Virus record (IMG/VR): IMGVR_UViG_3300034418_006582
Coordinates: 1-64,000 of that record
From: a virus
Length of the DNA: 64,000 bases
Direction: 5' to 3' (one strand)
How positions within the stretch are numbered: position 1 is the first letter of the stretch; the number at the start of each line of letters is the position of its first letter. Made by a program: the position numbers and the translations under genes. The notes beneath the pieces were generated by a model. The model was not told the DNA's origin, made no database searches, and saw nothing but the letters and a program-made list of their open reading frames with translations. Positions 10,016 to 41,617 of this stretch are shown in pieces.

Positions 10016-10087
10016 AGTACCCCCTAGTGTTGATACTTAGATCACTTATAGCATCCATTTGTCCTCCTTTTTTTTGCACATTACTGG

Positions 10088-12078: not shown

Positions 12079-12342
12079 TTTAAGCTCCTTTTATTTTCTA
12101 TTACTTCTAATAATATTAACTGCCTATCAGATATATGCAAGTATATTTTTAAAAAATATTTAAAGCTGGCCGTTGATCTTCTAGCAGTCATGGATCTAAT
12201 TCTGCGCTGCATAAAGTCGGATTGAAAACGAGCTTTAATGATAAGTCCATAATATGATCACCGATAGAAATGGGATTGAAAATCAGTATTAATGATAAGT
12301 TTTTACTAGTAAGGCCAGAAACGGCTAACGATCAAAAAATGC

Positions 12343-12374
12343 AAAAAAAAAGAGGGACATTTGCCCCTCTTTTT
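12343..12374 (-). terminator. Cassette terminator
   Basis: A-tract followed by GAGGG..CCCTC hairpin. Confidence 0.75.
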
Positions 12375-12722
12375 CCGTAATCGAGATGAGGTTATGCGAT
12401 CATTGTAGGATCGTATTTCAAACCTAATTGTTTTCTACACTCATCGTCTAAGATCAAGATTGCATTTTCGCAACTATCACAAGTGATCACATTATTACGC
12501 TCTAAGTCAGTTGTTGTAAGAACTGCAAGCGTATCACAATTTTGACAGTCTATTTCAAAAAACATTAATCTACCCTTTCTGCTTTAACAATTTTGTAGCC
12601 CTCTTTATAAAAAAGATTTTCTACTGAATACATATCCAATTCCTCAATAGCGTTTTCGATACACTCAGCTTTATTGTTACCCTCGCCATAGATCTCTAAT
12701 TGAACTGTAAATTTATATTCTT

Positions 12723-13052
12723 TCATTTTTTCACCTCAAAACGATCAAGACCATGAATAAAAGCGCCATTGTTTCCCTCAGGATCGCCCATTAATGTGAT
12801 AGTAATAGTTTTTCCTTTACTATCCTTTAATTCGATCACAGGAAAAGCAACATCATCAGACCAGTCTGTTTCCTCGTTGAGTTTCCATTGAGTCTGTACA
12901 AAATAAGTATCTTTAATTCTTAAGCCCTTAAGTTTTTCAAGATCCTTATAGTCATTTAAGTTATGATCAAGATCTGATCTTTTCACAACTTCTCGATAAT
13001 CAGTTGATCCAGTATCACTTTCGATATGATCAACATAATTTTCAGGTTTCAT
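12723..13052 (-). CDS. Hypothetical early protein
   Basis: Conserved leader; MGDPEGNNGAFI motif. Confidence 0.75.
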   Translation of the reverse strand: MKPENYVDHIESDTGSTDYREVVKRSDLDHNLNDYKDLEKLKGLRIKDTYFVQTQWKLNEETDWSDDVAFPVIELKDSKGKTITITLMGDPEGNNGAFIHGLDRFEVKK

Positions 13053-13080
13053 AATTTACCTCTTTCTGTATTACTTCTCA

Positions 13081-13119
13081 TAATTATACTTGCATAGTTG
13101 TGTTATGCAAGTATAATTA
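13081..13119. promoter_or_regulatory. Palindromic bidirectional promoter with operator
   Basis: 16-bp perfect arms with a 7-bp centre; TTGCAT-16-TATAAT on both strands. Confidence 0.85.
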
Positions 13120-13151
13120 AAATTAGTAATAGAGAAAAGAAAGAGGACAAA

Positions 13152-13805
13152 ATGGAAAGAGTAGATCTTTTTAGAGAACCTATAAAAAAATGGGATATGG
13201 ATAAAGACACAAAAGCATTTTTAGTAGAAAATGATTTTGGTATCACTGACACTGGTGGTGGTTGTATCCATTTAACATACAAAGACTGGATCATAAACAA
13301 ATATGAATCAGTTGATTATGATGACATGTACGCACTTAACGAGATCACTTTAAACGATCTATGTATGTGGGGACAAATTTGGAACGATACTGGCGAGGAC
13401 ACATCGTTTTTGAACACTTTAGAAAGTGGAAAACAATTTGTTGATCAATACAAGTTAAGTGGAAGTCAATTTGCAAATAAAACAGATAAGCCGATCAATA
13501 GTTGGATCGAGGTATGGGAAAAAAGTGGTGGCGATCTAGATACTTACGAACAAAACTATTTTTTATGCCAGTGGGAAAACAGTTATTTGGTTTCTAGCGA
13601 AAAAGACTTAATCAAAAACTTTCCTCATGATGTACATGTAAAAGAGTTAGGTTGGTCAGGCTACAACAGAACTAACGGTAAATCTGTTGCAATAGATACT
13701 TTTTGGGACATGATCATGTTTATAAAAAAAGATAATCCTTTTGAGTGGACATTTTTTAGCGACAACATGAATATTACGCTCATGAGAGAAAGTGAAACAG
13801 AATAA
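13152..13805 (+). CDS. Hypothetical early protein
   Basis: ATG at 13152 follows the AGTAATAG..AGAGG leader; TGGGC motif. Confidence 0.75.
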   Translation: MERVDLFREPIKKWDMDKDTKAFLVENDFGITDTGGGCIHLTYKDWIINKYESVDYDDMYALNEITLNDLCMWGQIWNDTGEDTSFLNTLESGKQFVDQYKLSGSQFANKTDKPINSWIEVWEKSGGDLDTYEQNYFLCQWENSYLVSSEKDLIKNFPHDVHVKELGWSGYNRTNGKSVAIDTFWDMIMFIKKDNPFEWTFFSDNMNITLMRESETE

Positions 13806-14363
13806 TGGTTGTTAAAGACAACGAGTGGTTAGATCATTGCACATGCGATGATCTAACTGCGAGAAATTGTATATGCGACTTAAACGAGGGGGAATAATGG
13901 CGAATCGACATAGTTGGCAAGATATGGCTGACTTAACACACAAAACACAAGTAGAGGAATTTAATTTTTGTTTATGCGAGGAACAAGAAGTATTCCCTTA
14001 CGATGATTGCCCAAAAGAAAGTGTAGGGAAGTAATGGAACAAATAATAAATCTATTACAAAAAGTATTAGACATATCTAAACAACTAGACAGTAATGATG
14101 AATTGTCATTAACAACTGACTTAGAAGAAGATATTGAAATATTTATAAAGGATAATTAAAGTGAAAAGAAAATTAATTAAATTAGTTATCAAAATATTGA
14201 TAGAAAGATCAGATCTAGATCGTGATGATCTACACGAGATCTCAAAATATGCCGATAACATTATTGTAAGTAAATTTATAAGAGGTAAAAATTGATTTAT
14301 ATAATTCAAATTATATTGGAAAAACTTAAGGGCAAGAAGTAAAGCTGACACCATAAGTTTTGA

Positions 14364-14392
14364 GAGAGGGGCTTACAAGCCCCTCTTTTTTT
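14364..14392 (+). terminator. Terminator of the rightward cassette
   Basis: GAGGGGCTT-AC-AAGCCCCTC followed by T-tract. Confidence 0.8.
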
Positions 14393-14548
14393 ATTTGAGA
14401 TTGAAAATTTACATTAATGATAAGTCTTTTATTTGATCATGGTAAAAATCGAGATTGAAAATGAGTATTAATAATGAGTTTTTCATAGGATCATCGAAAC
14501 ACAAAAAAAAATGGGGATCCTAAGATCCCCATTTGTATTGTTTGATTG

Positions 14549-15115
14549 CTAAATTTTTAAACGATCTTTTAACTGATGATCGGTATAGATCTCACCAGTC
14601 TCAAAATTCACACGATCATAATTGTATAAGTGATTAAACAAATCGACTTTTGATTTGTCTAACTCTTTAACCATATGATCATAGATCCATTGAAAATTGA
14701 TCAATAGAAAATTATGAAAATCAAGATTGCCAGTTGTTGATCTCTCATGCTTGATCCATTTAGATCTGTAACTCTCTAAATGGCAATTTGAGTATGATAC
14801 ATCGAGGTTAAGACATTTACTACAACCTAACAACAATGCAATAGTCATGACATTTGTATAAGTGTCTTTATTAACTCTTATATCGTAGATCGTATCGAAT
14901 TGATCTCTATAGTCATTTTTTTCACCATTATTTTTACCGATACAATAATGAGTATAAGAGGGATAGATCTTGCCATAAATGTTATTAACTTTTATTGGTA
15001 AATAATCTTGTCTCTTATAATCATCGAATCTTAGATCAACGATGATTGGCTTAAAGTTTTCTAAAACATTTAAGATCATCGCATATTGATCTTTAGTTAA
15101 ATTATGATCGATCAT
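14549..15115 (-). CDS. Hypothetical early protein (GATC-dense)
   Basis: 188-aa ORF coupled to 15112-15456. Confidence 0.7.
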   Translation of the reverse strand: MIDHNLTKDQYAMILNVLENFKPIIVDLRFDDYKRQDYLPIKVNNIYGKIYPSYTHYCIGKNNGEKNDYRDQFDTIYDIRVNKDTYTNVMTIALLLGCSKCLNLDVSYSNCHLESYRSKWIKHERSTTGNLDFHNFLLINFQWIYDHMVKELDKSKVDLFNHLYNYDRVNFETGEIYTDHQLKDRLKI

Positions 15116-15456
15116 GATAAATTGATCTTATCTAAGATCTCATTGATCTTGTTTGCTTTAACTGGATCTTTAAAGACATCGTAATTGATCGCTTTAGAAA
15201 AACCAAAGGGATCATTTTGCGATAGATCCTCTTTTAAGATCTCAATATCCGTATCACTTAAAGTTAGATCCTCTATGATCGTTTTATTGATTAATTCAAA
15301 ACTAAACCAATTATCGATCTTTTGATCCTCTAACTCTTTTAGTAATAATTCTCTAGCAATAGTTTTACCTTGTTTTGTTGCAACAGATACAACCTTTTCG
15401 GTCTTATCCATTAACTTAACGAGATAGTCATATTGCCATAAGTTTTTATTGGGCAT
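15112..15456 (-). CDS. Hypothetical early protein (GATC-dense)
   Basis: Conserved leader and RBS. Confidence 0.7.
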   Translation of the reverse strand: MPNKNLWQYDYLVKLMDKTEKVVSVATKQGKTIARELLLKELEDQKIDNWFSFELINKTIIEDLTLSDTDIEILKEDLSQNDPFGFSKAINYDVFKDPVKANKINEILDKINLS

Positions 15457-15756
15457 AATTTCCTCTTTCTCTTAATTACTAATTTAAGCATATCACACAT
15501 CGGCAATTTATAAAAGTCAATAAATATAAACTTTTGGTTATGGTGATCGGTTAAGGTCTAAATTTAAAATCGCTTAAAACGGCTTAAAACGGCTTGTTTA
15601 AAAAATCGAGATTGAAAATCAGCCTTAATGATAAGTTTTTTAATGGATACTCAAAAAATGTGTTTTAAAATGAATCTCTTAAAATGGATCTAAAGAGGAT
15701 ATAAAGAAAGAGGATCCAGTAAAACTGGATCCTCTTATTTGATTAGTAACCGATGT

Positions 15757-16008
15757 TTAAAACGGATCTGGTATTCTCAATTCATTTTGGAAGTATTCTA
15801 AATTTGCTTGAATTGTACTAGCTCTTTTAAAAGTCAATTCATTAAAATTAGAATTAAAATTTTCAAAGACTTCGATCATATGCCGTTCTAATACTGATAA
15901 TTCATAGATCATTTTGAATTTAGTATCTAGATCATAATTTCTAAATTTGATCGCTGATACTCTAACCTTTAGAATTTTTGCTATCGCTATAAAATGTTTT
16001 TTAGTCAT
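15757..16008 (-). CDS. Hypothetical early protein
   Basis: MTKKHFIAIAKIL..F...N..F...F pattern; GAGG RBS. Confidence 0.7.
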   Translation of the reverse strand: MTKKHFIAIAKILKVRVSAIKFRNYDLDTKFKMIYELSVLERHMIEVFENFNSNFNELTFKRASTIQANLEYFQNELRIPDPF

Positions 16009-16010
16009 TT

Positions 16011-16250
16011 TTAACCTCTTTCTATTTTTCTATATGTATCTAAAGAATTGTAATTTTCTTTAATTAATTTGCTAACCTTAACAACTCTATAAACTCTTTT
16101 ACATGTGATTGGATCACTTATAAACATTTTTACAGAATTGCACTCACCTATTGAGTTATGATCAGCACAACCGTCAGCTTTCTTTTCTAAAATGAAAAAA
16201 AACTGATCACCGTATTTTTTTCCTATTTGATCTAAAGTCATAAACTTCAT
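16011..16250 (-). CDS. Hypothetical early protein
   Basis: Conserved leader and RBS. Confidence 0.7.
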   Translation of the reverse strand: MKFMTLDQIGKKYGDQFFFILEKKADGCADHNSIGECNSVKMFISDPITCKRVYRVVKVSKLIKENYNSLDTYRKIERG

Positions 16251-16593
16251 TGATCACCTCTTTCTTTTCGATTACTGATCTAAGCATATCACAACTATGC
16301 AATTAATTCACTTAAAAAATAATTATTTATTTGAGTAAAAGAGGATCTAAAGAGGATCTAGAAAAAACGCGATTGAAAATCTGTCATAATGATAAGTTTT
16401 TTAATTGATAAGCGAAATAATCGAGATTGAAAATGGCCTTTAATGATAAGTTTTTTATTTGAGGCTCGAAATTAAGATATTTTAGATTTAGCTGAAGTTG
16501 ATCCAGTATTGCCAAATTTAATATTGCGTTGAGAGATCCGTGGCATAAAAAAAGTGGGGCATAAAGCCCCACTCAATCGATATTACTTTATTT

Positions 16594-16941
16594 TTAACTG
16601 TGACAAGTTACGACAAAAGCACATAATCTTTCTTTTATCGCTAAGTCCTCAGGCTTAGTACCTCGCAAGAGCTTATCCAACTCAGTCAAATCACCGTACT
16701 TTCCTCTGAAGTCGATATAAATTTGCTCATCTGCCTCATCGCCTAGAGCTTTAAACAGACTTTCCAAACTGTCTATTGCTTTCAACTCAACAGATTTTCT
16801 TTCAGGTATTTCTATACTGTCATATTGTCCACCGTACTCAGTTTGTTTTTCGTACCAGTCAAGAATATTGCATGGCAAAAAGCCATTTTTAACACTCCAA
16901 ACATGGTCGACAGTAGAAACACCAATGCCGTTTGTCCACAT
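16594..16941 (-). CDS. Hypothetical early protein
   Basis: Single-gene cassette with promoter, leader and terminator. Confidence 0.75.
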   Translation of the reverse strand: MWTNGIGVSTVDHVWSVKNGFLPCNILDWYEKQTEYGGQYDSIEIPERKSVELKAIDSLESLFKALGDEADEQIYIDFRGKYGDLTELDKLLRGTKPEDLAIKERLCAFVVTCHS

Positions 16942-17131
16942 TTTATTTTTCCTTTTTTTAGTCGATTACTAATTTTAATTATAATTGCCTTTTACTTATA
17001 TGCAATAACATTTTTGCAATTAAAGATCCGTGGATAAAATGCAGAGTTAGATCTAATTTTGCCTTGGATCTTTAACTGCATAAAAAAAAGAGGTTGGACA
17101 AACCAACCTCTTTTAATTTTGGCAGAGCTGC

Positions 17132-17710
17132 TTAAGCTATTTCAATAGCCTCGCCCTCTAAAGTCCAAACAGTTTCGCCAGTATCTAGGTCGCCGAAATT
17201 TTCAAAATACCACTCAGTCCAAAACCAGTTATCAAGCCCACCACCAAAGTTCTTTTCGCCAGTTTTAGTATCAATAAGCCTGTGCCACTCTTTTGTATTC
17301 ATTTCTATGCCACCGAACTCATCAGCCCTTTCAATTAAAGAGATGATGAAGTTTCTATTCTCAACTGTTTCCTCATTTAGCAGAGTTAGATCTAAATTAG
17401 GCAAGTGCATATCATGGCAATTACAGTTATCATACTTTTCGCAATCTCTCACTTCACACTCTCTTGAGCAAATCACACTGATATCGCCAATTAAGTAACC
17501 CTCATTTATGCCTTTACCACAATCATCGACTTCGCAATGTCTAGGGTAAACTGTTAAGGTTTCAACTTCTTTTAAACAAGTATCGCACCAAGTTTTGCCA
17601 TTTCCAACTGGTTCGCCTACCTCGGATCTATATAAGCCAACCCAGTATTGCTTGCTTAATGTTCCGAAACTTTTGCAAGTTCCACATATCTCAACGGTTT
17701 TTTCGTCCAT
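17132..17710 (-). CDS. Cys-rich zinc-finger early protein
   Basis: Multiple CxxC motifs. Confidence 0.75.
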   Translation of the reverse strand: MDEKTVEICGTCKSFGTLSKQYWVGLYRSEVGEPVGNGKTWCDTCLKEVETLTVYPRHCEVDDCGKGINEGYLIGDISVICSRECEVRDCEKYDNCNCHDMHLPNLDLTLLNEETVENRNFIISLIERADEFGGIEMNTKEWHRLIDTKTGEKNFGGGLDNWFWTEWYFENFGDLDTGETVWTLEGEAIEIA

Positions 17711-17958
17711 TATTTATTCCTCTCTATACAAGTTTCACACTCAAACTCAGGACCACTACACCATGAGCAGTAACACTCATCGAATAAGCCCTCAGCATGT
17801 TGGCAACAAGTTGCACTATCAAAAGCATGAGTTTCCAATTCAACTGGATAAGTCTTAAACATATATCTGTCTAATACTTTTCCAGTAAACTCCCAAACAC
17901 CTAAAAGCAAAAATGCAATCACGGTTATTGAGAATATAAGAAAAAATGCGTTTTCCAT
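17710..17958 (-). CDS. Small membrane-anchored Cys-rich protein
   Basis: N-terminal TM segment; conserved leader. Confidence 0.7.
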   Translation of the reverse strand: MENAFFLIFSITVIAFLLLGVWEFTGKVLDRYMFKTYPVELETHAFDSATCCQHAEGLFDECYCSWCSGPEFECETCIERNK

Positions 17959-18013
17959 TTTTTATCCTTTCAATCGATTACTAATTTAATTTTGATCACT
18001 TTTTGCTATTTTG

Positions 18014-18391
18014 TCAAGAATAGAAATAGAACTCATAATTATCTCGAAGTTCTTTGTAGTCTTTCTTTTCCTGACAATCATGATCTCTGTCTGCAAAATA
18101 CAAAGTTGGAGTTCTGCAAAAGTCACAGACATGATGATGAATTGCAAAAGAAAAATCGTCACGAGTTGTTATTGTAAAAGCCAACCAACCCAAGTCAGTA
18201 TAAACTTTTATATCTACACCTGGGAAACTATGATTTTTTAAATAGTGTTCTGCACTAAAAACAAGTTGTTCCAAATGTTCTGCACTTTTCAACTTTGTAT
18301 CATCAACAGAATATTTTTCAATATAAGTTTCTTGTGCAAATGAGTTATCGCCTTTAACTCCGATTTTAAATTTATATTTTCTTTGTTTCAT
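18014..18391 (-). CDS. Hypothetical early protein
   Basis: Conserved leader; CDFC..HDC. Confidence 0.7.
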   Translation of the reverse strand: MKQRKYKFKIGVKGDNSFAQETYIEKYSVDDTKLKSAEHLEQLVFSAEHYLKNHSFPGVDIKVYTDLGWLAFTITTRDDFSFAIHHHVCDFCRTPTLYFADRDHDCQEKKDYKELRDNYEFYFYS

Positions 18392-18753
18392 TTTTACCTC
18401 TTTATCGATTACTACTTATTAGAATAACACTATTTTGCAATTAAAGATCCGTGTTATCTATAAATATCTGTGCAGTCCAGTCAAGGTCCAAAAATTCTAA
18501 ACGCTTAAAACGGCTTAAAAGTGCCTGTTTTTTTCAAGTTTTTACAAAATTAGCAATCCTGGATCAAATTCAGCAAATTTGCGATTGAGAATTAGTCTTA
18601 ATGATTAGTCATTTATTTGATAATTAAAACAATTGAGATTGAAAATGTATGTTAATGATGAGTTTTTTATTTGATACTCAGAATTGAGCCATGGATCTTT
18701 TAGTGCAAAAAAAAAGCGAGGTCGAAACCTCGCTCTTTTTTATTTAATGCGAC

Positions 18754-19164
18754 CTATAACATATCAGCAATTTGGTTTTCATATTCAGAATAAAAAGTTT
18801 CAAATTCCTCATTGGTCAATTTATTTTCATGACTTAACGACATGCAAGACTTTTGTATTAAATCCGTAATTGAATTTCGGTTTGCACTTAAGTTAGGATT
18901 GTAACAATCAAGCCAAAACAAAAAATGGTCTGTCCTCATTTTGTAAGTTTCGACTATTTCATTTTTGGCTAAAGAATACTTTTGGCATAAAGTCCAAAAG
19001 TCTGGCTCAGGTTGAGTTAAACAATCAAACAACCATAAATCATAACTATGAGTTTCTGAATTATGTGCCTCAATATCTCTACTGTCAAACATAAGAATAT
19101 AGTTTGACATGTCTAAATTAGGCACAACAAACAACTGTTTCATATTGTCCCAAATATTTTCCAT
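18754..19164 (-). CDS. Hypothetical early protein
   Basis: AGGGGG RBS; followed by terminator at 18707-18742. Confidence 0.7.
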   Translation of the reverse strand: MENIWDNMKQLFVVPNLDMSNYILMFDSRDIEAHNSETHSYDLWLFDCLTQPEPDFWTLCQKYSLAKNEIVETYKMRTDHFLFWLDCYNPNLSANRNSITDLIQKSCMSLSHENKLTNEEFETFYSEYENQIADML

Positions 19165-19174
19165 TATTCCCCCT

Positions 19175-19456
19175 TTAACTTTTGTAATAGTTATTTATTG
19201 CGTTTTGCATTACGCTATCTTTTACAAAAAATTCATCAACTTCTACATTGTCAACAAACTTTTGTACATTGTAATTAAATTCCCAGTATTTTTTTTCCTC
19301 AAATGAAGTATGGTATTCATCATATTGGATTAACCATATGGTCTTACTACTACCTGGGATTATTTGTAAATCACGAAAACATAATTCCTCAAATAAAATC
19401 CAGCAATCGTTTTCAAAATTAACTGGATTTTTTTTAGTGTATTTTGGCTTAGCCAT
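19175..19456 (-). CDS. Hypothetical early protein
   Basis: Conserved leader; perfect operator upstream. Confidence 0.7.
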   Translation of the reverse strand: MAKPKYTKKNPVNFENDCWILFEELCFRDLQIIPGSSKTIWLIQYDEYHTSFEEKKYWEFNYNVQKFVDNVEVDEFFVKDSVMQNAINNYYKS

Positions 19457-19852
19457 TTTTTACCTCTTTTTAATCGATTACTAATAACCATTATAGTTGC
19501 ATATTTGTCTTATGCAATTCAAAAATCTCTGAGATCCGTGTAAAAAAAAAATTGATCACAAATAGCAAAACTGGATCCGTGTTTTGTAAAACTGGCCAAA
19601 TTGCTGCAAAGCTGACGAAACAAAACGAGATTGAAAATGTCTTATAATGATTAGTCCTTTAAGTGAAACTAGAGAGAATTGAGATTGAAAATGTGTATTA
19701 ATAATAAGTTTTAAATTTGAAGATCGAAACTTAGATTTGTTTAAATACTGGTAAAAAAGAGACAAAAAAAAAGAGGGCTTTAAACCCTCTTTTTTAATTT
19801 TATTTGATTAATTAGCGCTTTAATTTCTCAAATATGATTTCTACAATATATT

Positions 19853-20110
19853 TCATAATCTCCTCTCTTTTAATCGTTTTACTATTTCCTCGTATCTTTC
19901 ATGGTTTAAACCAACTTCATGATCTTCTAATTCTTTAGCACCAACTTCATCATTCCATTCATAAAGGGCATCTAATAGATTTTCATAAATATTTGGTCTT
20001 CTATATCTTGTGATAATTTTGGTTAACATGTCGAAGATCATCCCCAACATGAAACCAAAACCAAACATCAAAATTAAACCGTTAACAGATAGCATGTTTA
20101 TATCTCCCAA
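19853..20110 (-). CDS. Small membrane protein
   Basis: TM segment GLILMFGFGFMLGMIF. Confidence 0.65.
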   Translation of the reverse strand: MGDINMLSVNGLILMFGFGFMLGMIFDMLTKIITRYRRPNIYENLLDALYEWNDEVGAKELEDHEVGLNHERYEEIVKRLKERRL

Positions 20111-20442
20111 TTTTGTCTAATATCTTCTTTTTCTTTACCTTTTGCACTATCCCAAGAATTAAAGATCTCCAGTTCTTTCTCACTTAATAACTCAAGGGCA
20201 AACGATAAAGATTCTTTTATTGTTTCTATTTCTTTAGAAAATTTATTTAATTGATTTCCTAAATACTTAGCGCCATTATAAAATCCTGCGTCATACTCAT
20301 TTGTTGAATCACAATCCATCACATACTCGAGTACTTCATCAAAATTTCTTAAACCCATTCCACTTAAATCGGTAAAATTTTCACCTTCAAAATCTTCTCT
20401 AATTTCTTGAATTAGTTCTTCGATCTTCTCGTTTAATGTCAT
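20098..20442 (-). CDS. Hypothetical acidic protein
   Basis: GGAGG RBS; coupled ORF. Confidence 0.7.
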   Translation of the reverse strand: MTLNEKIEELIQEIREDFEGENFTDLSGMGLRNFDEVLEYVMDCDSTNEYDAGFYNGAKYLGNQLNKFSKEIETIKESLSFALELLSEKELEIFNSWDSAKGKEKEDIRQNWEI

Positions 20443-20595
20443 TCTTCCTCCCCTATAACTATAGTATCAGTTTCCGATTCACAATTATGGCAGTACTCCT
20501 CCCCAGCACCGTCTATAATTGTGTCATCGTTTAAATTTTGCCATATATCCGTATAAACATCTTTCGAGCCACACCCACTGCAAACATACGGCATT

Positions 20596-20862
20596 TTATT
20601 GTCTATCTTTCTTTAATTTGATTTCATTAATAATACTTTTGCTACCGTTCCACGCTCCAGTTGTTATTAATTCAACTTCAAACCCCAAACCCTCTAACCA
20701 ACTATTGATTTCATTTTCAATAGCTGTCGCAATATTAAAGGGATGATCTTCGACTTCATAATCTTCATTGTGTTGAAGATCATGAACTTCTAAATCTACA
20801 TTTTCATCCAGTTTTAAAACTAGCTTATATTCAAAATGTAGGTTATCTAATTTGATTAGCAT
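20596..20862 (-). CDS. Hypothetical early protein
   Basis: Conserved leader AGTAATCGAAAAAGAGG. Confidence 0.7.
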   Translation of the reverse strand: MLIKLDNLHFEYKLVLKLDENVDLEVHDLQHNEDYEVEDHPFNIATAIENEINSWLEGLGFEVELITTGAWNGSKSIINEIKLKKDRQ

Positions 20863-21059
20863 ATTTACCTCTTTTTCGATTACTTATTTAATTATTGATC
20901 AACTTCTGATTTATGTCAACAACCTTTTTAAATTATTTTCCAAACGGTCTAAACGGTCTAATAGTTCTTTATGTTGTAACCTTTTAAAATCAATATAAAG
21001 ATAAATTAAACCAACTAAAGAAGCTAATATCAATAAACTTAAAAGCAATTCTAAAAGAT

Positions 21060-21251
21060 TCATTGATGGAGACCACTTCGACAAAATGCCACTTTATAAT
21101 TAAACTTGCCCTCTATTGAGATCTCCAATTCATAAGAACATATTGGGCAATATTCAGCAAAGAGATTTATATCTTTTCTAGTTCTATTTTTAACTTGCTT
21201 ATTTCCTACTCTTTTTCGGTCAATAAGTCTTTTAATGTTTCTCATCATCAT
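21060..21251 (-). CDS. Small zinc-ribbon protein
   Basis: CPIC..CRSGLH. Confidence 0.45.
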   Translation of the reverse strand: MMMRNIKRLIDRKRVGNKQVKNRTRKDINLFAEYCPICSYELEISIEGKFNYKVAFCRSGLHQ

Positions 21252-21475
21252 TAGTTACTAGTGACAAGTTATTAAAAATTTGACCATTTTTTAAAAAAAA
21301 GAATTAGATCATGTGAATTAAAAAAGTAAACAAAAAAAACGAGATTGAAAATGAGTCTTAATGATGAGTTTTTTATAGGATCATAGGAAATGCTGTCAGA
21401 TTATTAAGAGCTAAAAAAAGACAATAAAAAAAGTGGGGTATGAAACCCCACTTTAAAAATAAATTAAATTATTTT

Positions 21476-21850
21476 TTAAATTAACTTTGATTGATCATCT
21501 AAGAAACAACTATTTAAAAAACCGATCATTAATCTTTGATCCGTCTTAGTAGTTGCAACATTAACAAACGGCATAAACCAATCTTGATATTGAGCCTGAA
21601 TATCTTTAATCAAACCATTTTCATCAGTTGACCAGATCCAGCGATAAGCACCACCACCCCACGAGATCAAAATGCCCTCGATATAACCAGCCTTTACATC
21701 TTGTCTAGTTAATCTAGTGTGATCAAGTTTTTCCAAAGCGTACCATTTACCGTTTTCTTTTATTTCTTTTGCTAATTCTTTCAAATAACTTTTGTGGTAT
21801 TTGGTTCCCTCAACATGTAATTTTTCTAGTGTTTCAGCCATTATTTCCAC
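21476..21850 (-). CDS. Hypothetical early protein
   Basis: LISWGGG..YQDWF motif. Confidence 0.75.
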   Translation of the reverse strand: MEIMAETLEKLHVEGTKYHKSYLKELAKEIKENGKWYALEKLDHTRLTRQDVKAGYIEGILISWGGGAYRWIWSTDENGLIKDIQAQYQDWFMPFVNVATTKTDQRLMIGFLNSCFLDDQSKLI

Positions 21851-22191
21851 CCCCTAAATGTGCTATAACTTTGCCAAAATTCAGTAGTTAGATCGATTAA
21901 TATTTTTCCATTTTCATCAAAAATATTTGTTTCTAACATTGAATTTAAAACTTCAGAAAAATTATTTTTTGACAATAATTCTTTAGCAAGTTTCTTGTTT
22001 TTATTTGCTTGAATATGTGAAAACATTAACGCAACTATTTCATGTGTTGCGCCATATTTTTCCATAAGATCCAAAGTCATATTTATATAGTGCTTAAAAG
22101 TTATATCCTTGTTTTTAAATTTACTTTCAATAACATAAAGCTGGTACAGTCTGACTTGATCGCCAGTCAAACCAATATTTAATTCAGTCAT
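21841..22191 (-). CDS. Hypothetical early protein
   Basis: AAGGA RBS; coupled ORF. Confidence 0.7.
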   Translation of the reverse strand: MTELNIGLTGDQVRLYQLYVIESKFKNKDITFKHYINMTLDLMEKYGATHEIVALMFSHIQANKNKKLAKELLSKNNFSEVLNSMLETNIFDENGKILIDLTTEFWQSYSTFRGWK

Positions 22192-22192
22192 T

Positions 22193-22336
22193 TTAATTAT
22201 TTCCTTTCAAATAATATTTCTTGTTTAATCTGTCTATTAATCTTTCAAAAAGATAATTAGACAGAAAGCCTAAAGCAAAACAACCCAAAACAATAATTAA
22301 ATATTCAGTTGGGTTTAAAGTGATTGTATCAACCAT
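22193..22336 (-). CDS. Small membrane protein (47 aa, not in ORF track)
   Basis: MVDTITLNPTEYLIIVLGCFALGFLSNYLFERL.. directly after the conserved leader. Confidence 0.65.
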   Translation of the reverse strand: MVDTITLNPTEYLIIVLGCFALGFLSNYLFERLIDRLNKKYYLKGNN

Positions 22337-22634
22337 TTTTTCCTCTTTCTTTTTCGATTACTAATTTTAATATTAATCGCATATCAGAGTTATGCAAATC
22401 AAAAAAATGTTTTTTTATGTATGATTGCTGATCGGTGGAACCTTAGCCCCACCGATTATTTATTTAATGTTTATTAATAGGGGGTAGGGGTACTTTCAAA
22501 ATCGCGATTGAATATTTGTGTGCTGTGAATAAGCACTGCGCAAATTTTTTTCAAATTTTTCAAAGCCTATCTCTGATAGGCAGGTTTGTTAAAAACCTGT
22601 TGTCGTTACATTGAGTCTTTGCTATTATTGATCT

Positions 22635-22743
22635 GTAAGCTAATAGAAAGAAGTTGTTGATTGGACACTGGCAACTTGGTTTTCTTTAGAATTACGAAGC
22701 AGGACAGTATAAAGGGGTAGAGCAATCTGCCCCTTTATTATTT
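22635..22743 (+). ncRNA. Candidate small RNA A
   Basis: TTGTCG-17-TATTAT promoter with extended -10; long irregular hairpin; terminator; no ORF. Confidence 0.5.
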
Positions 22744-22777
22744 CCTAAAGCTCTTAGATCTACTAGTAGAATAGAAG

Positions 22778-22843
22778 TATCTTGCGACTTGGCTAGGTCT
22801 AGGGGTTTCGCCTCCTTTACCCTGGATCTAGCCACCCTTTTTT
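22778..22843 (+). ncRNA. Candidate small RNA B (anti-SD loop)
   Basis: 15-bp stem at 22790-22834 with loop containing CCTCCTTT, followed by T-tract. Confidence 0.5.
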
Positions 22844-22864
22844 AATTTGTGCTATACTTTTTAT

Positions 22865-22946
22865 TAGACATTGGGAAGTCCTTTCTCACTGGCTAGGTGT
22901 AATTTATATTGAAAGAGGAGCTGAAGACTCCTCTTTCTTTTTTTTT
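22865..22946 (+). ncRNA. Candidate small RNA C
   Basis: Extended -10 TGCTATACT; strong terminator GAAAGAGGAG..CTCCTCTTTC plus T-tract; no ORF. Confidence 0.4.
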
Positions 22947-22985
22947 CTAGAAAAACTTAAAAAACTCTTACAGTCTTATTTATAT

Positions 22986-23192
22986 ATGAAGAAATTAATA
23001 AAACTACTACTGAAGATCCATAAGAAGAAAGTAATTATAGGTTGCGCTTGTACACATAGGTGTAGTGAGTGCGATGAGTTAATAATGGCTCATAAACCAT
23101 ACCAGATCACCTTTATAAGCCTCTCAGAGAGACTTTCTGGTCATCATGGGACAATTACCTGTAGAGAGTGTGTGGTGGCTCTGAAGTCATAA
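22986..23192 (+). CDS. Small zinc-finger protein
   Basis: CSEC..CREC. Confidence 0.5.
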   Translation: MKKLIKLLLKIHKKKVIIGCACTHRCSECDELIMAHKPYQITFISLSERLSGHHGTITCRECVVALKS

Positions 23193-23451
23193 CTAGCCTT
23201 TCCTTACCAGCCTCTCTCAACTTCCTAACTTCCTAACTCCCTATCTATGTCAGGAAATAGGTGTTTTTGATACCTCCACAGCGCAATTCATAATGATATA
23301 GTATGAGTTCGGATATAGGCACCAGAAATCCAAATATAAATTAGATCCGAGAGAACAAGATCAGAGCAAAATTCGAGAGAAATACGAGATATATAGCAGA
23401 TATTGATCCAGATACGCTAGATCCGAGTATTTATCTATACAATAAGGGTAT

Positions 23452-23970
23452 ATGAGTGATGAAATAGAAATTATTGACTCGGTTGATGAAATTGATCGCA
23501 GCGGGAATACAGATATAGCTGTTGCGGATCAAGAGGATTTCGATATAGAGATTGTTGGTAGGCCAAGCAAATTAACCGATGACACAGTAAGGAAATTATC
23601 CTCTGGCTTGAAAATGGGTTTAAGTCAGAAAAAAGCAGCAGATTTTGCTGGAATATCAGAAACTACTTTTTATAGGTGGCAAAGAGAGTTCCAGAAGATC
23701 GATAAGGCTTGTTTAGGTAACCCAGATCGTATAAATAACGCTGATGATCTCAATTTATGGGAGTTTTGGCAGTCCTTAAAAAAGGCAAAGATCGAGGGCG
23801 AGCTTTCCCATATAGCTGTAATCACAGAGGCAGCGAATAATGGAGTATGGCAGGCTAGTGCTTGGTTCTTAGAGCGATCTAATCCACAAGATTGGGGTAA
23901 AGACAAGCGAGAACTTGAAGCTCATTCAGAGGGTAAGACAATAGAATTTAATATTAAATACAGTTCATAA
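23452..23970 (+). CDS. Terminase small subunit-like HTH protein
   Basis: GRPSKLT..AADFAGISETTFYRW..WQASAWFLER..WG. Confidence 0.75.
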   Translation: MSDEIEIIDSVDEIDRSGNTDIAVADQEDFDIEIVGRPSKLTDDTVRKLSSGLKMGLSQKKAADFAGISETTFYRWQREFQKIDKACLGNPDRINNADDLNLWEFWQSLKKAKIEGELSHIAVITEAANNGVWQASAWFLERSNPQDWGKDKRELEAHSEGKTIEFNIKYSS

Positions 23971-24003
23971 GTTTTCCGATATCGGAAAAGTGTTACACAA
24001 GAC

Positions 24004-24104
24004 AAAAACCCTCCATTGCTGGAGGGCTTGTTGCCAGTAATACGAAAAAAAGGAGTCGTCCTGTGGTCTAGAAAGACCGAAGAGGACTCTTTTGATTCAG
24101 TACT
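24004..24104 (-). ncRNA. Candidate antisense sRNA complementary to the shared early leader/RBS
   Basis: TATGGT -10 then AGTA start; 5' hairpin; CTCCTTTTTTTCGTATTACTGG; terminator CCCTCCA-GCAA-TGGAGGG-TTTTT. Confidence 0.6.
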
Positions 24105-24153
24105 TATTTAACCATAAGTAGATTTATATGCAACAATATATTAAAATATTTTT

Positions 24154-24699
24154 ATGACGGTAATACCTTTTCCTGATAAAAAATACAACATTATTTACGC
24201 AGATCCTCCCTGGTCATTTAAGAACTTTAGTAAAAAAGGCGAGGGTAGAAATCCTAATCAGCATTATGCAACACAAGATCTGAACTGGATCAAGTCTTTA
24301 CCTGTAAATGACATAGCTGATAAAGATTGTGTTTTATTTTTATGGGTAGTGAACCACTCTTTACCACAGGCATTTGAAGTTATTGAAAGCTGGGGGTTTA
24401 CTTACAAGACAGTAGCTTTCAACTGGGTTAAAAAAAATATGAAATCTGAGGGATTTTTCACTGGTTTAGGATATTGGACAAGAGGAAATCCAGAAATATG
24501 TTTATTAGCAACAAAAGGTAAACCAAGTAGAGTTTCTAAAGCTGTGAAAGAATTAGTAATAGAGCCTAGATCTAAACACAGCAAAAAACCAGACAGAATT
24601 AGAGATGATATTATTGACTTGTGTGGTGATCTCCCTAGAATTGAATTGTTTGCAAGGAATACGACTAAAGGATGGGATGTATGGGGGAATCAGATTTAA
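24154..24699 (+). CDS. MT-A70 family adenine methyltransferase
   Basis: IIYADPPW, LFLW, HSKKP and RIELFAR..GWDVWGN motifs. Confidence 0.93.
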   Translation: MTVIPFPDKKYNIIYADPPWSFKNFSKKGEGRNPNQHYATQDLNWIKSLPVNDIADKDCVLFLWVVNHSLPQAFEVIESWGFTYKTVAFNWVKKNMKSEGFFTGLGYWTRGNPEICLLATKGKPSRVSKAVKELVIEPRSKHSKKPDRIRDDIIDLCGDLPRIELFARNTTKGWDVWGNQI

Positions 24700-25229
24700 T
24701 ACCTTTTCCAGAGAAAAAATATAATATTATTTATGCCGATCCACCGTGGTCTTATGATTCAGGTTTTCTTAAAAGAAATTGGGACGGTAAGTACAATCAG
24801 ATGAAACCACAGGAGATCTATGATCTACCAGTGCAAGATATAGCAGACGATAATTGTATTTTGTTTATGTGGATCACTTATCCTAAATTACTTATAGGTT
24901 TACAAGCTATGGAAAGTTGGGGATTCAAGTATCGCAGTGCAGCATTTACTTGGGTTAAAAGGAATAAGAAAGCAGACACTTGGTTTTGGGGTATGGGACA
25001 TTGGACTAGAGCTAATGCTGAGGTCTGCTTTCTAGGTGTAAAAGGAAAACCTCAAAGAGAAAGTGCTAGTGTTCACTCAATCGTTGATGAAAGAATACAA
25101 GAACACTCAAAAAAACCAGATGTAGTTAGAAATAAAATTGTAGAGCTTTGTGGAGATCTACCTCGTATAGAATTATTTGCAAGACAAAAAGTAGAGGGTT
25201 GGGATAGTTGGGGAAATGAAATTATTTAA
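24672..25229 (+). CDS. MT-A70 family adenine methyltransferase
   Basis: IIYADPPW, HSKKP and RIELFAR motifs; tandem paralog. Confidence 0.93.
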   Translation: MGCMGESDLIPFPEKKYNIIYADPPWSYDSGFLKRNWDGKYNQMKPQEIYDLPVQDIADDNCILFMWITYPKLLIGLQAMESWGFKYRSAAFTWVKRNKKADTWFWGMGHWTRANAEVCFLGVKGKPQRESASVHSIVDERIQEHSKKPDVVRNKIVELCGDLPRIELFARQKVEGWDSWGNEII

Positions 25230-25905
25230 TGGTGATTGTTTAGAAGTTATGAAAGAGTTACCAGATAACTCTATTGATTTAATTGTTACAAGTCCACCTT
25301 ATGAAGATATTTCTGGTGCAGGATATCAAGCTAGTAACAAAGATATTCTATTTTTAAAGCTGTACTCAGAATTTATAGATCAAGTCTTTGAACAATACGC
25401 CAGGATCTTAAAACCTAACGGCCAGTTGTTTTTTAATATTAAAAGCAAAACAGCGCAAAAAAAATTAAGGACACCTCATTGGTTAGAATTTACAAATGCT
25501 TTTCAACAGCTTGATTTCAAAAGTTACATTATTTGGAAATATGCTGGTAGCTTTGATAGTTCCAAAGCTAGATTCCATTTAGATTACGAAATTATATATC
25601 ACCTTGCAAAAGGAGATGATATTTATTTAAACAGTGATTGTGGTATAGATGATCCATTAACTTCTGTATGGTATGTACCACACAATATACCAAAAGCAGA
25701 AAGAATACACCCTACACAAATGCCATTAGCTCTGGCAGACAGAATATTAAAAATTGCCTCAAAACCAAACGATGTTGTTTTAGATAATTTTATGGGAAGT
25801 GGAACTACTGGTGTCGCTTGTATAAAAAACAATGTAGATTTTATTGGAATTGAATTAAACAACGATAATTACAAATTAGCAAAGGAGAGAATTGAAGCTA
25901 TTTAA
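25216..25905 (+). CDS. DNA methyltransferase (beta class)
   Basis: TSPPY, HPTQMP and VLDNFMGSGTTG motifs. Confidence 0.93.
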   Translation: MKLFNGDCLEVMKELPDNSIDLIVTSPPYEDISGAGYQASNKDILFLKLYSEFIDQVFEQYARILKPNGQLFFNIKSKTAQKKLRTPHWLEFTNAFQQLDFKSYIIWKYAGSFDSSKARFHLDYEIIYHLAKGDDIYLNSDCGIDDPLTSVWYVPHNIPKAERIHPTQMPLALADRILKIASKPNDVVLDNFMGSGTTGVACIKNNVDFIGIELNNDNYKLAKERIEAI

Positions 25906-26815: not shown

Positions 26816-27455
26816 CGCTTTAGAAATATTAAAAGAAATGCAAGATGACTATGTAGATCATGTTTTTACTAGTCCACCATACAATATTGGCAGAAGTAGA
26901 TCTATACAATCAAAAGCAAAAGGTAAATATGAACATTTTGAAGATAGTAATGAAAACTATTTTGATTGGTGTACAAAAATCATTGACCAGCTTTTAAGAG
27001 TTTCTAGTGGGTATGTTTTTTGGAATATACAAGCAAACTCACAAAATAAAAAAGATGTTTTTAAACTAATAGGTCATTATGCAGATATTTTAGAACAAAA
27101 CTTTATTTGGTATAAGCCTAATGCGACACCTAGTTCAAAACAATATTATGTTTCAAATGTAGTTGAATATATTTTATGTTTTTCTAAATCTAAGGTAAAA
27201 GGAAATAAACATTTTTTAAGAAATCATGTTGAAATAAATAAAGGAACTAAGTATATAAAAAACTTAAATGCACAAATGCCTCTTTCTTTAGCTGATCATT
27301 TTATTAAAAATTACACACAAAAGGGCGAAATTGTACTAGATCCTTTCTTAGGTAGTGGAACAACTGGAGTAGTTTGCATGAATAGACAAAGAAGTTTTAT
27401 TGGTATAGAATTAGTACCAGAATATTTAGAAATAGCAAAAGAAAGAATCAAATGA
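26793..27455 (+). CDS. DNA methyltransferase (beta class)
   Basis: TSPPY and VLDPFLGSGTTG motifs. Confidence 0.92.
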   Translation: MITLFQGDALEILKEMQDDYVDHVFTSPPYNIGRSRSIQSKAKGKYEHFEDSNENYFDWCTKIIDQLLRVSSGYVFWNIQANSQNKKDVFKLIGHYADILEQNFIWYKPNATPSSKQYYVSNVVEYILCFSKSKVKGNKHFLRNHVEINKGTKYIKNLNAQMPLSLADHFIKNYTQKGEIVLDPFLGSGTTGVVCMNRQRSFIGIELVPEYLEIAKERIK

Positions 27456-41281: not shown

Positions 41282-41617
41282 ATGTCTTACAACTACCAAA
41301 CATATCTAAAAGAAACTGTCGTATTCCAATCTGCTGGAACATCTACAGTCGATGAAAGAGGATTGTATAATTCTGATTGGGTTGATGATATTACTACAAA
41401 ATGTCGTATTGATCCAAGGACATCAGATGAGGATAGTGGAACTAGAGATACTGAAGTATCTGAAATTGATATCCATATTCCTGCAAATGTAAATGTAAAA
41501 ACTTCACACAGAGCAGTATTGAATAGTAAATATTACGATGTATTGGGTATTGAGGAAAAGAAAAATAGATATTCAAACCCAGTAATCAAAACAGTCACAA
41601 TGCGTAGGAGTGGTTAA
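41282..41617 (+). CDS. Head closure/stopper protein
   Basis: DERG..W..CRI..YYDV; synteny. Confidence 0.7.
   Translation: MSYNYQTYLKETVVFQSAGTSTVDERGLYNSDWVDDITTKCRIDPRTSDEDSGTRDTEVSEIDIHIPANVNVKTSHRAVLNSKYYDVLGIEEKKNRYSNPVIKTVTMRRSG

Follow-up and report, generated by a model that had tools for sequence, protein, structure and literature searches.

A conserved minus-strand element beside a phage methylase operon is complementary to tagged early-gene leaders and may encode a trans-acting antisense RNA

Introduction

What is known of early-gene shut-off in phages concerns mainly proteins, among them RegA and RegB of T4, and to our knowledge each of the known phage antisense RNAs acts on one transcript. 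The CI RNA of phage P4 is a small immunity RNA that pairs with short complementary sites in a leader and is processed from the operon that it controls. A review of phage small RNAs (2025) covers OOP, aQ, sar, c4, 24B_1, VpdS, PreS, IsrK, AgvB, and AsxR (PMC12197685). The c4 RNA of P1 and P7 represses by pairing at or near the ribosome-binding site (RBS) in a leader, with a specificity that differs between related phages (PMC12197685). P22 sar, lambda OOP, and aQ are short, terminator-ended RNAs, encoded opposite a single and fully complementary target, that block the translation of a phage mRNA or lead to its cleavage by RNase III (PMC12197685). VpdS of VP882 and PreS of lambda have their own promoter and terminator, no open reading frame (ORF), and a short seed matching near several RBSs (PMC12197685); the known trans-acting small RNAs (sRNAs) of phages mostly hit host genes or a few phage genes. 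Among proteins, T4 RegB cleaves GGAG and RegA competes with ribosomes on about 30 mRNAs (PMC3014915). In T4-type phages, small early genes come with PeSLs, i.e., a repeated sigma70-like promoter and stem-loop terminator (PMC2839356, PMC4122927).

The locus analyzed here resembles each of these systems in part. It would share with c4 and CI a small phage RNA, short complementary sites near the RBS, and phage-specific pairing, and these two, together with the multi-target trans sRNAs, are the closest described systems by mechanism. However, c4 and CI are processed from the controlled operon and act on one transcript, whereas the candidate has its own predicted promoter outside every target operon, lies 1.7–14 kb from its targets, and would reach ~12 separate transcripts through a common 5′ tag. 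The predicted RNA shares short length and a terminator end with sar, OOP, and aQ but would be trans-encoded and would pair with many targets through bulged, G:U-containing duplexes: it sits between terS and a methylase operon, and the nearest target leader is 1.7 kb away. As in VpdS and PreS, there is a terminator, no coding sequence, and a seed complementary to the RBSs of distant mRNAs, with expression itself predicted; the seed here, however, would read an extreme-5′ tag of the whole early set, and the part complementary to the Shine-Dalgarno sequence (anti-SD) would be masked. By role, RegA and RegB come closest, both acting globally on early mRNAs through a motif in the initiation region, but these are proteins, whereas an RNA that recognizes a phage-specific tag plus the SD is proposed here. 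PeSLs are the closest description of the target cassette array, yet they are described as recombination or regulatory modules with no antisense RNA to a common leader reported, and the element itself differs from them in that its plus-strand leader copy has no promoter and only 7 nt separate hairpin and tag. No RNA addressing a tag common to many early transcripts was found in the literature searched, including the review cited above (PMC12197685).

Results

Genomic setting and tagged early leaders

The window, i.e., the whole 64,000-nt stretch of DNA analyzed, is part of a 78,156-bp IMG/VR virus record of an uncultured phage. The element lies in an intergenic stretch (23971–24153) between a terS-like gene (23452–23970), for which helix-turn-helix matches were sub-threshold only, and an operon of six DNA methylase genes, the first of which starts at 24154. 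By Pfam these comprise two MT-A70, three N6_N4, and one C5 methylase, the last being the ORF at 27452 (tblastn). Among GenBank phages, no near-identity match to 8 kb of this genome was found. The phage is probably virulent, as a search for a tyrosine integrase gave none. In all relatives, a gap of only 5–7 nt separates the −10 box of the methylase promoter from the start codon, and the methylase mRNA is accordingly predicted to be leaderless and untagged; the six-methylase operon is thus probably translated from a leaderless mRNA with neither tag nor SD.

To the left of terS, the 1.1 kb between the last cassette and this gene (22344–23451) are poor in ORFs and contain plus-strand terminator-like hairpins at 22709–22738 and 22911–22937. 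Twelve related contigs (L002, L004, L006, L008–L013, L223, L226, and L227) begin 20–160 nt upstream of terS, which suggests either that the genome physically ends there or that assemblies tend to break just left of this gene. A pac or cos site at the element was considered and rejected, as the contigs of relatives break upstream of terS and not at the element.

The early region consists of an array of small cassettes (Table 1), all on the minus strand except the one starting at 13152, which alone is on the plus strand. The initial annotation had noted AGTAAT 6–7 nt past the −10 box in eleven cassette genes, and all eleven listed starts indeed displayed a −35/−10 pair, a gap of 6–7 nt, (T/A/C)AGTAAT, a purine tract, an SD, and ATG. 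The −10 boxes preceding (T)AGTAAT are of the sigma70 type in the eleven cassettes as well as in the leftward operon at 10087, whose leader (10087–10064) can also be given as CCAGTAAT..AAAAAAAAGGAGG.

Table 1 Positions of the predicted RNA unit, the adjacent promoter, and predicted target leaders in the window
Feature	Position	Strand	Details
−35 box	24128..24133	−	TTGCAT; inside the spacer of the divergent plus-strand methylase promoter
Extended −10	24106..24114	−	TGgTTAAAT; −10 hexamer TTAAAT at 24111–24106
Predicted ORF-less small RNA	24004..24098	−	~95 nt; predicted start ~24098 to end of U-run
Hairpin 1	24044..24098	−	SD-like 5′ arm AAAAGAG pairs with anti-SD CUCCUUUU
Anti-leader segment	24034..24055	−	CUCCUUUUUUUCGUAUUACUGG; 3′ part (~24043–24034, anti-AGUAAU) single-stranded in predicted fold
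Intrinsic terminator	24004..24029	−	Stem CCCUCC/GGAGGG (hairpin 24029–24006), then U-run
Divergent methylase-operon promoter	24119..24156	+	TAGATT, 17 nt, TAAAAT, 6 nt, ATG; read from sequence
Leftward-operon leader, strongest predicted target	10064..10087	−	CCAGUAAU..AAAAAAAAGGAGG
Early cassette array, AGUAAU-tagged leaders	12079..22363	−	Starts 12078, 13052, 15456, 16250, 16941, 17958, 18391, 19456, 20862, 22336

A predicted minus-strand RNA unit

Promoter, terminator, and fold signals jointly point to an ORF-less unit on the minus strand of the intergenic stretch. The expectation of a gene-less minus-strand unit with an anti-leader segment and a terminator was thus borne out, including the hairpin at 24029–24006 with its U-run, but the promoter differs from the one initially proposed. 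TATGGT, first taken as the −10 box with a start at ~24104, is not conserved in relatives, and the conserved promoter puts the predicted start at ~24098. Nor is the −35 box weak, since the conserved register uses TTGCAT at 24133–24128, separated from the −10 by a 16-nt spacer ending in TG; TAAATA at 24110–24105 is an alternative −10 register. TTGCAT, TTGCTT, or TTGTTT occurs at the matching place, 16–17 nt from the −10, in 10 of 11 variants. Across the AT-rich stretch 24106–24114, the invariant columns of an eight-sequence alignment are the TG, the −12T, and the −7T of the minus-strand extended −10, and the remaining variants have TGn followed by a TAnnnT-type hexamer. The promoter is thus a prediction from conserved motifs.

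For the candidate RNA of this phage, predicted folding energies range from −37.6 to −43 kcal/mol (the 107-nt stretch 24104–23998 has z = −6.7), and z-scores against shuffled sequences ranged from −5 to −7 in the variants tested. Hairpin 1 has an apical stem GGUCU/AGACC closed by a UUCU loop (24073–24070). The segment 24034–24055, which reads CCAGTAATACGAAAAAAAGGAG on the plus strand, is the anti-leader of the initial annotation. In the predicted fold its anti-tag part is free to pair; the anti-SD part, however, is base-paired within hairpin 1 throughout the variants. On the minus strand, the SD-like 5′ arm is not followed by a start codon, no conserved ORF was found on either strand among the variants, and a search of the whole window against Rfam at gathering thresholds returned no family (best sub-threshold match Phe_leader, 22.7 bits against a threshold of 55, E = 0.7).

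On the plus strand, GTG GTC TAG lies 7 nt downstream of an SD, AAGGAG (24049–24071). The corresponding mini-ORF reads TTG ATC TAG in most relatives, has 6 codons in L015 and 13 in L204, and is lacking in L194. With lengths of 0 to 27 codons across variants, its start recurs and the mini-ORF as such is not conserved, and it was rejected as a functional part.

Conservation in related phages

Searches of IMG/VR with the terS protein recovered about 15 related contigs from other samples, which represent ~11 variants of the unit (the window; L002–4; L006; L008; L007; L010/11; L223; L226/7; L009/L015; L194/5; L012–14/L204). A loose pattern scan of metagenomes yielded 4 real instances among the at least 120 matches listed, all of them duplicates of known variants. 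Overall, the predicted minus-strand promoter, the hairpin, the single-stranded linker, and a minus-oriented intrinsic terminator are kept in all ~11 variants. The core of hairpin 1 is near-identical in eight of them, which have terS proteins 53–85% identical and scrambled flanking intergenic DNA, and the most distant variants (L015, L194, L204) have a wholly different sequence in an identical layout. Among related phages, none was found that has tagged leaders and lacks the unit, as the proposal had predicted.

Structural features were followed through folds of the individual sequences, as the RNAalifold consensus was poor on roughly cut sequences. The apical stem takes the forms GGUCU/AGACC, GGUCU/AGAUC, GAUCU/AGAUC, AGGCU/AGCCU, GUAC/GUAC, and GUGC/GCAC, and the UUCU loop is kept in most variants, differing in L007, L011, and L204. 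All variants share an SD-like purine run in the 5′ arm (e.g., AAAGAG or GAAGGA) that is paired with an anti-SD in the 3′ arm, and in all predicted folds the linker between hairpin 1 and terminator is single-stranded and constitutes the complement of the tag. The U-run of the terminator always lies on the minus strand, and the stems of the variants differ by compensatory changes. The minus sense had the better minimum free energy in 9 of 11 variants, was equal in one (L204), and was worse in one (L226), in which the terminator hairpin is better in the plus sense and, with U-rich tracts on both sides, looks bidirectional. Evidence from G:U pairs in hairpin 1 is mixed: one apical pair is G:C, G:U, or A:U in the minus sense, and an adjacent position is U:G in the plus sense and a C·A mismatch in the minus sense.

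The L012–14/L204 lineage carries a ~1.2-kb minus-strand gene (10412–11650 in L204) between terS and the RNA unit, and there the unit stays by the methylase promoter and not by terS. Plus-strand copies in the L006/L223/L226 clade, in which early regions are missing, read about TAGTATTGACAAAC and ATGTATTGACAATC. The 58-kb contig of a further relative (G002; L005, positions 513–700) has, at the corresponding site, a minus-oriented terminator and a leader-like plus copy, TAGTACAGACATGAAGGAAA, with a different hairpin (ATTGGC/GCCAAT); no tagged early leaders were found in this contig, its early region probably being missing. In distant terS relatives (L016–L041, ~40% identity), the intergenic regions are unrelated.

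Complementarity to the early leaders of the same genome

Within this genome, the minus strand of 24034–24055 can pair with all twelve leaders over 17–24 bp at −16 to −25 kcal/mol, with bulges required in several of them. The duplex with the 20862 leader is as had been claimed (17 bp, one G:U, one bulge, −19.1 kcal/mol), and the one with the 10087 leader, also predicted, reaches 21 bp with two G:U pairs and −24.8 kcal/mol. When the full-length RNA was cofolded with each of 11 leaders, the apical hairpin was retained and the base of the hairpin opened, and a net gain of −10.7 to −17.2 kcal/mol stayed after that cost (−17.2 for 10087). Shuffled 28-nt seeds never reached the observed mean energy on the twelve leaders (z = −7.3, 0/1000), and 12 of 12 leaders ranked within the top 23 of the 183 gene starts of this genome by duplex energy. 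The similarity spans the predicted transcription start of the leaders to the SD and does not include promoter sequence, as expected of RNA–RNA pairing. A leader HMM run over the genome scored the plus-strand copy at only E = 51, which is not significant and is exceeded at several unrelated places. Leader similarity within a single genome is thus weak evidence, and a comparison with relatives is needed, because a short A-rich motif beside GGAG is not rare at 34% G+C.

Outside the early region, a tag-like CCAGTAATCAAAAC occurs within 41579–41616 (plus strand), 36 nt upstream of a 352-aa late ORF at 41617. Its duplex (−20.1 kcal/mol) is among the better predicted ones, and the site may be a chance match or an additional target.

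The anti-leader changes together with the leaders

We compared the early regions of the closest relative (G003), of two sister genomes (G001, 82 kb, and G006, 85 kb), and of the L204 lineage; L007 contributed one leader, as its first early protein matched only the query itself when relatives were sought. The promoter-proximal leader of G003, AGTAATACGA, is an exact match to the shared seed. G001 and G006 leaders read AGTATCGG or AGTATTGG, that of L007 reads CCAGTAATTGA, and those of the L204 lineage have ATACA..AGACAA instead of AGTAAT, i.e., the tag is fully replaced. In each phage, the plus copy resembles the leaders of that same phage.

A matrix of mean duplex energies covering five lineages, sister genomes G001 and G006 included, was cognate-best in all rows and columns, with diagonal values of −18.5, −20.3, −21.8, −21.3, −17.8, and −23.0 kcal/mol and off-diagonal values of −9 to −20 kcal/mol. 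For the lineage with the replaced tag (ATACA/AGACAA), the RNA has changed too, with −23 kcal/mol for cognate pairing vs −9 to −15 kcal/mol. Against shuffled seeds, cognate pairing gave z = −7 to −9 (0/1000), and the single leader of L007 gave z = −3.5 (3/1000). When the best five duplexes over all ORF upstream regions were used instead, the diagonal was again best for G003, G001, G006, and L204, but the column of the window phage (G000) was not cognate-best (−22.0 for its own seed vs −22.7 for that of G001). Likewise, promoter-proximal early leaders made up 5–7 of the top 8 cognate hits in the four other genomes and 3 of 8 in G000, several of the top hits being leaders outside the hand-picked set. 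The covariation of leader and putative sRNA that the initial annotation had called for was thus found in five lineages, where it follows the lineage-specific changes of the leaders.

Transitions between leader and copy were wobble-compatible in 40 cases and incompatible in 13. This bias lends weak support to a predicted pairing of the minus strand, because the pure A-run of the copy contributes to it, the counts are not independent, and A-rich mock copies skew similarly.

Metatranscriptome contigs

Six freshwater metatranscriptome runs contain parts of the phage, and four were compared over 20500–25500 as assembled contigs, in which strand and ends are unreadable. Contigs in the four RNA runs cover terS, ending at 23963–24002, and parts of the methylase genes. 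No contig covers 24007–24173 in the four assemblies, which says nothing either way on a ~95-nt RNA; structured RNAs of about this length do not usually survive library preparation and assembly of this kind. Contigs from the 20862 and 22336 cassettes end at 20869–20871 and 22343, respectively, in two to three of the runs, i.e., 15–19 nt inside the predicted starts and at about the SD. These ends are a weak hint and could result from assembly fall-off at the 5′ side or from processing.

Discussion

We observe an ordered sequence anatomy, its conservation across variants, and a cognate complementarity to early leaders, and from these we consider it somewhat probable that the locus encodes a trans-acting antisense sRNA against the early regulon. 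The element would be a minus-strand non-coding RNA gene running from ~24098 to 24004, transcribed from a host-type extended −10 promoter back to back with that of the leaderless methylase operon, and its product would end at the intrinsic terminator and comprise three parts, namely a masking hairpin, a free linker, and the terminator. The linker would be complementary to the first ~10 nt of the early mRNAs, i.e., to the AGUAAU tag, and would capture this tag first, in a toehold-type and tag-specific step. Pairing would then spread to the U-tract and the anti-SD, displacing the RNA's own 5′ arm, and the resulting duplex of 17–24 bp would cover the SD, block translation, and probably expose the mRNA to a double-strand RNase. 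Recognition of this kind is suggested by the fold, since the anti-tag alone is free, the anti-SD is held in a stem, and the cofolds are favorable. With the anti-SD masked, the RNA would be specific for tagged phage mRNAs and would not bind just any SD. Of the initial proposal that one trans sRNA acts on ~12 transcripts, the conserved unit, its signals, and its complementarity in five lineages stand; transcription, pairing in vivo, repression, and hence the direction of the effect are predictions from sequence.

Minus-strand complementarity and plus-strand similarity are the same observation, so that a sense copy bound by a tag-recognizing protein, or one maintained by gene conversion, would look alike. 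The functional part could accordingly be the plus-strand leader copy, serving as an RNA or DNA binding site or as a decoy for a tag-recognizing factor such as an RNase, a RegA-like translational repressor, or a protein that represses early transcription. A shared protein site would also predict that the copy resembles the leaders of each lineage, the sequence of hairpin 1 is conserved beyond the needs of base pairing, the plus strand of several variants carries an SD with GTG or TTG mini-ORFs, and proteins of T4 act on many early translation-initiation regions (PMC3014915). We nevertheless judge such a sense-strand role unlikely: the plus copy has no upstream promoter and starts 5–8 nt past a hairpin, the conserved promoter and terminator signals are oriented the opposite way, the mini-ORF is missing from L194 and varies in length among the other variants, and one would expect a DNA operator neither to reach through the SD nor to lie 60–100 bp from either promoter. 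Similarly low is the probability we give to a structured minus-strand RNA with another role, e.g., as a protein sponge or scaffold acting through hairpin 1, as an RNA directed at host transcripts, or as transcriptional insulation between terS and the methylases, with the leader complementarity being secondary. Hairpin 1 is indeed the most conserved part, with its UUCU loop in most variants, and the unit always adjoins the methylase promoter in divergent orientation, also in the lineage with an extra gene behind terS. Such roles would, however, leave unexplained why the linker changes in step with the tag in five lineages, full replacement included, and why early leaders are the best genome-wide matches.

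Cassette arrays with repeated regulatory sequences are known to recombine, as in PeSLs (PMC2839356, PMC4122927), and the element might thus be a non-functional relic, i.e., a piece of an early cassette that recombination left in inverted orientation beside a bidirectional terminator. The plus-sense preference of the L226 terminator hairpin and the statistically weak similarity within the genome would fit such an origin. Yet the element occupies the same place in ~11 variants with terS proteins down to ~53% identity, its core is more conserved than its flanks, key promoter positions are invariant, and the copy has been updated to the tag of each lineage. A decayed cassette leader, which the initial annotation had named as an alternative for the plus-strand copy, would not follow lineage-specific changes of the leaders, and given conservation, invariant promoter positions, and updating in five lineages we consider it very unlikely. 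It is possible that gene conversion or recombination among repeated leaders, of the PeSL type (PMC2839356, PMC4122927), homogenizes the inverted copy with no RNA function being involved.

If the element does act as an antisense RNA, a stoichiometric master off-switch is doubtful, because one RNA gene faces ~12 target promoters. Clearing early mRNAs after their transcription stops, setting a threshold, or acting on incoming phages with the same tag would fit better. Antisense action alone does not account for the strict conservation of hairpin 1, which may reflect a bound protein or a site of processing. More tentatively, tags and anti-tags (AGUAAU, AGUAU, AUACA/AGACAA) may have co-diversified as orthogonal address pairs that could shut off early genes when a phage of the same type superinfects, with tag switching as the means of escape, a scenario that we regard as unlikely. 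Such RNA-based exclusion would resemble the heteroimmunity of P1 and P7 but would concern a probably virulent phage and a whole regulon.

Should no such RNA be produced, there would still be a conserved non-coding element tracking the early leaders that needs explaining. If the RNA is produced, one small RNA reading the standard 5′ tag of every early mRNA would constitute a new layout of viral regulation, the masked anti-SD would provide a simple logic for sparing host mRNAs, and the lineage-specific pairs of tag and anti-tag would represent a natural set of orthogonal RNA switches.
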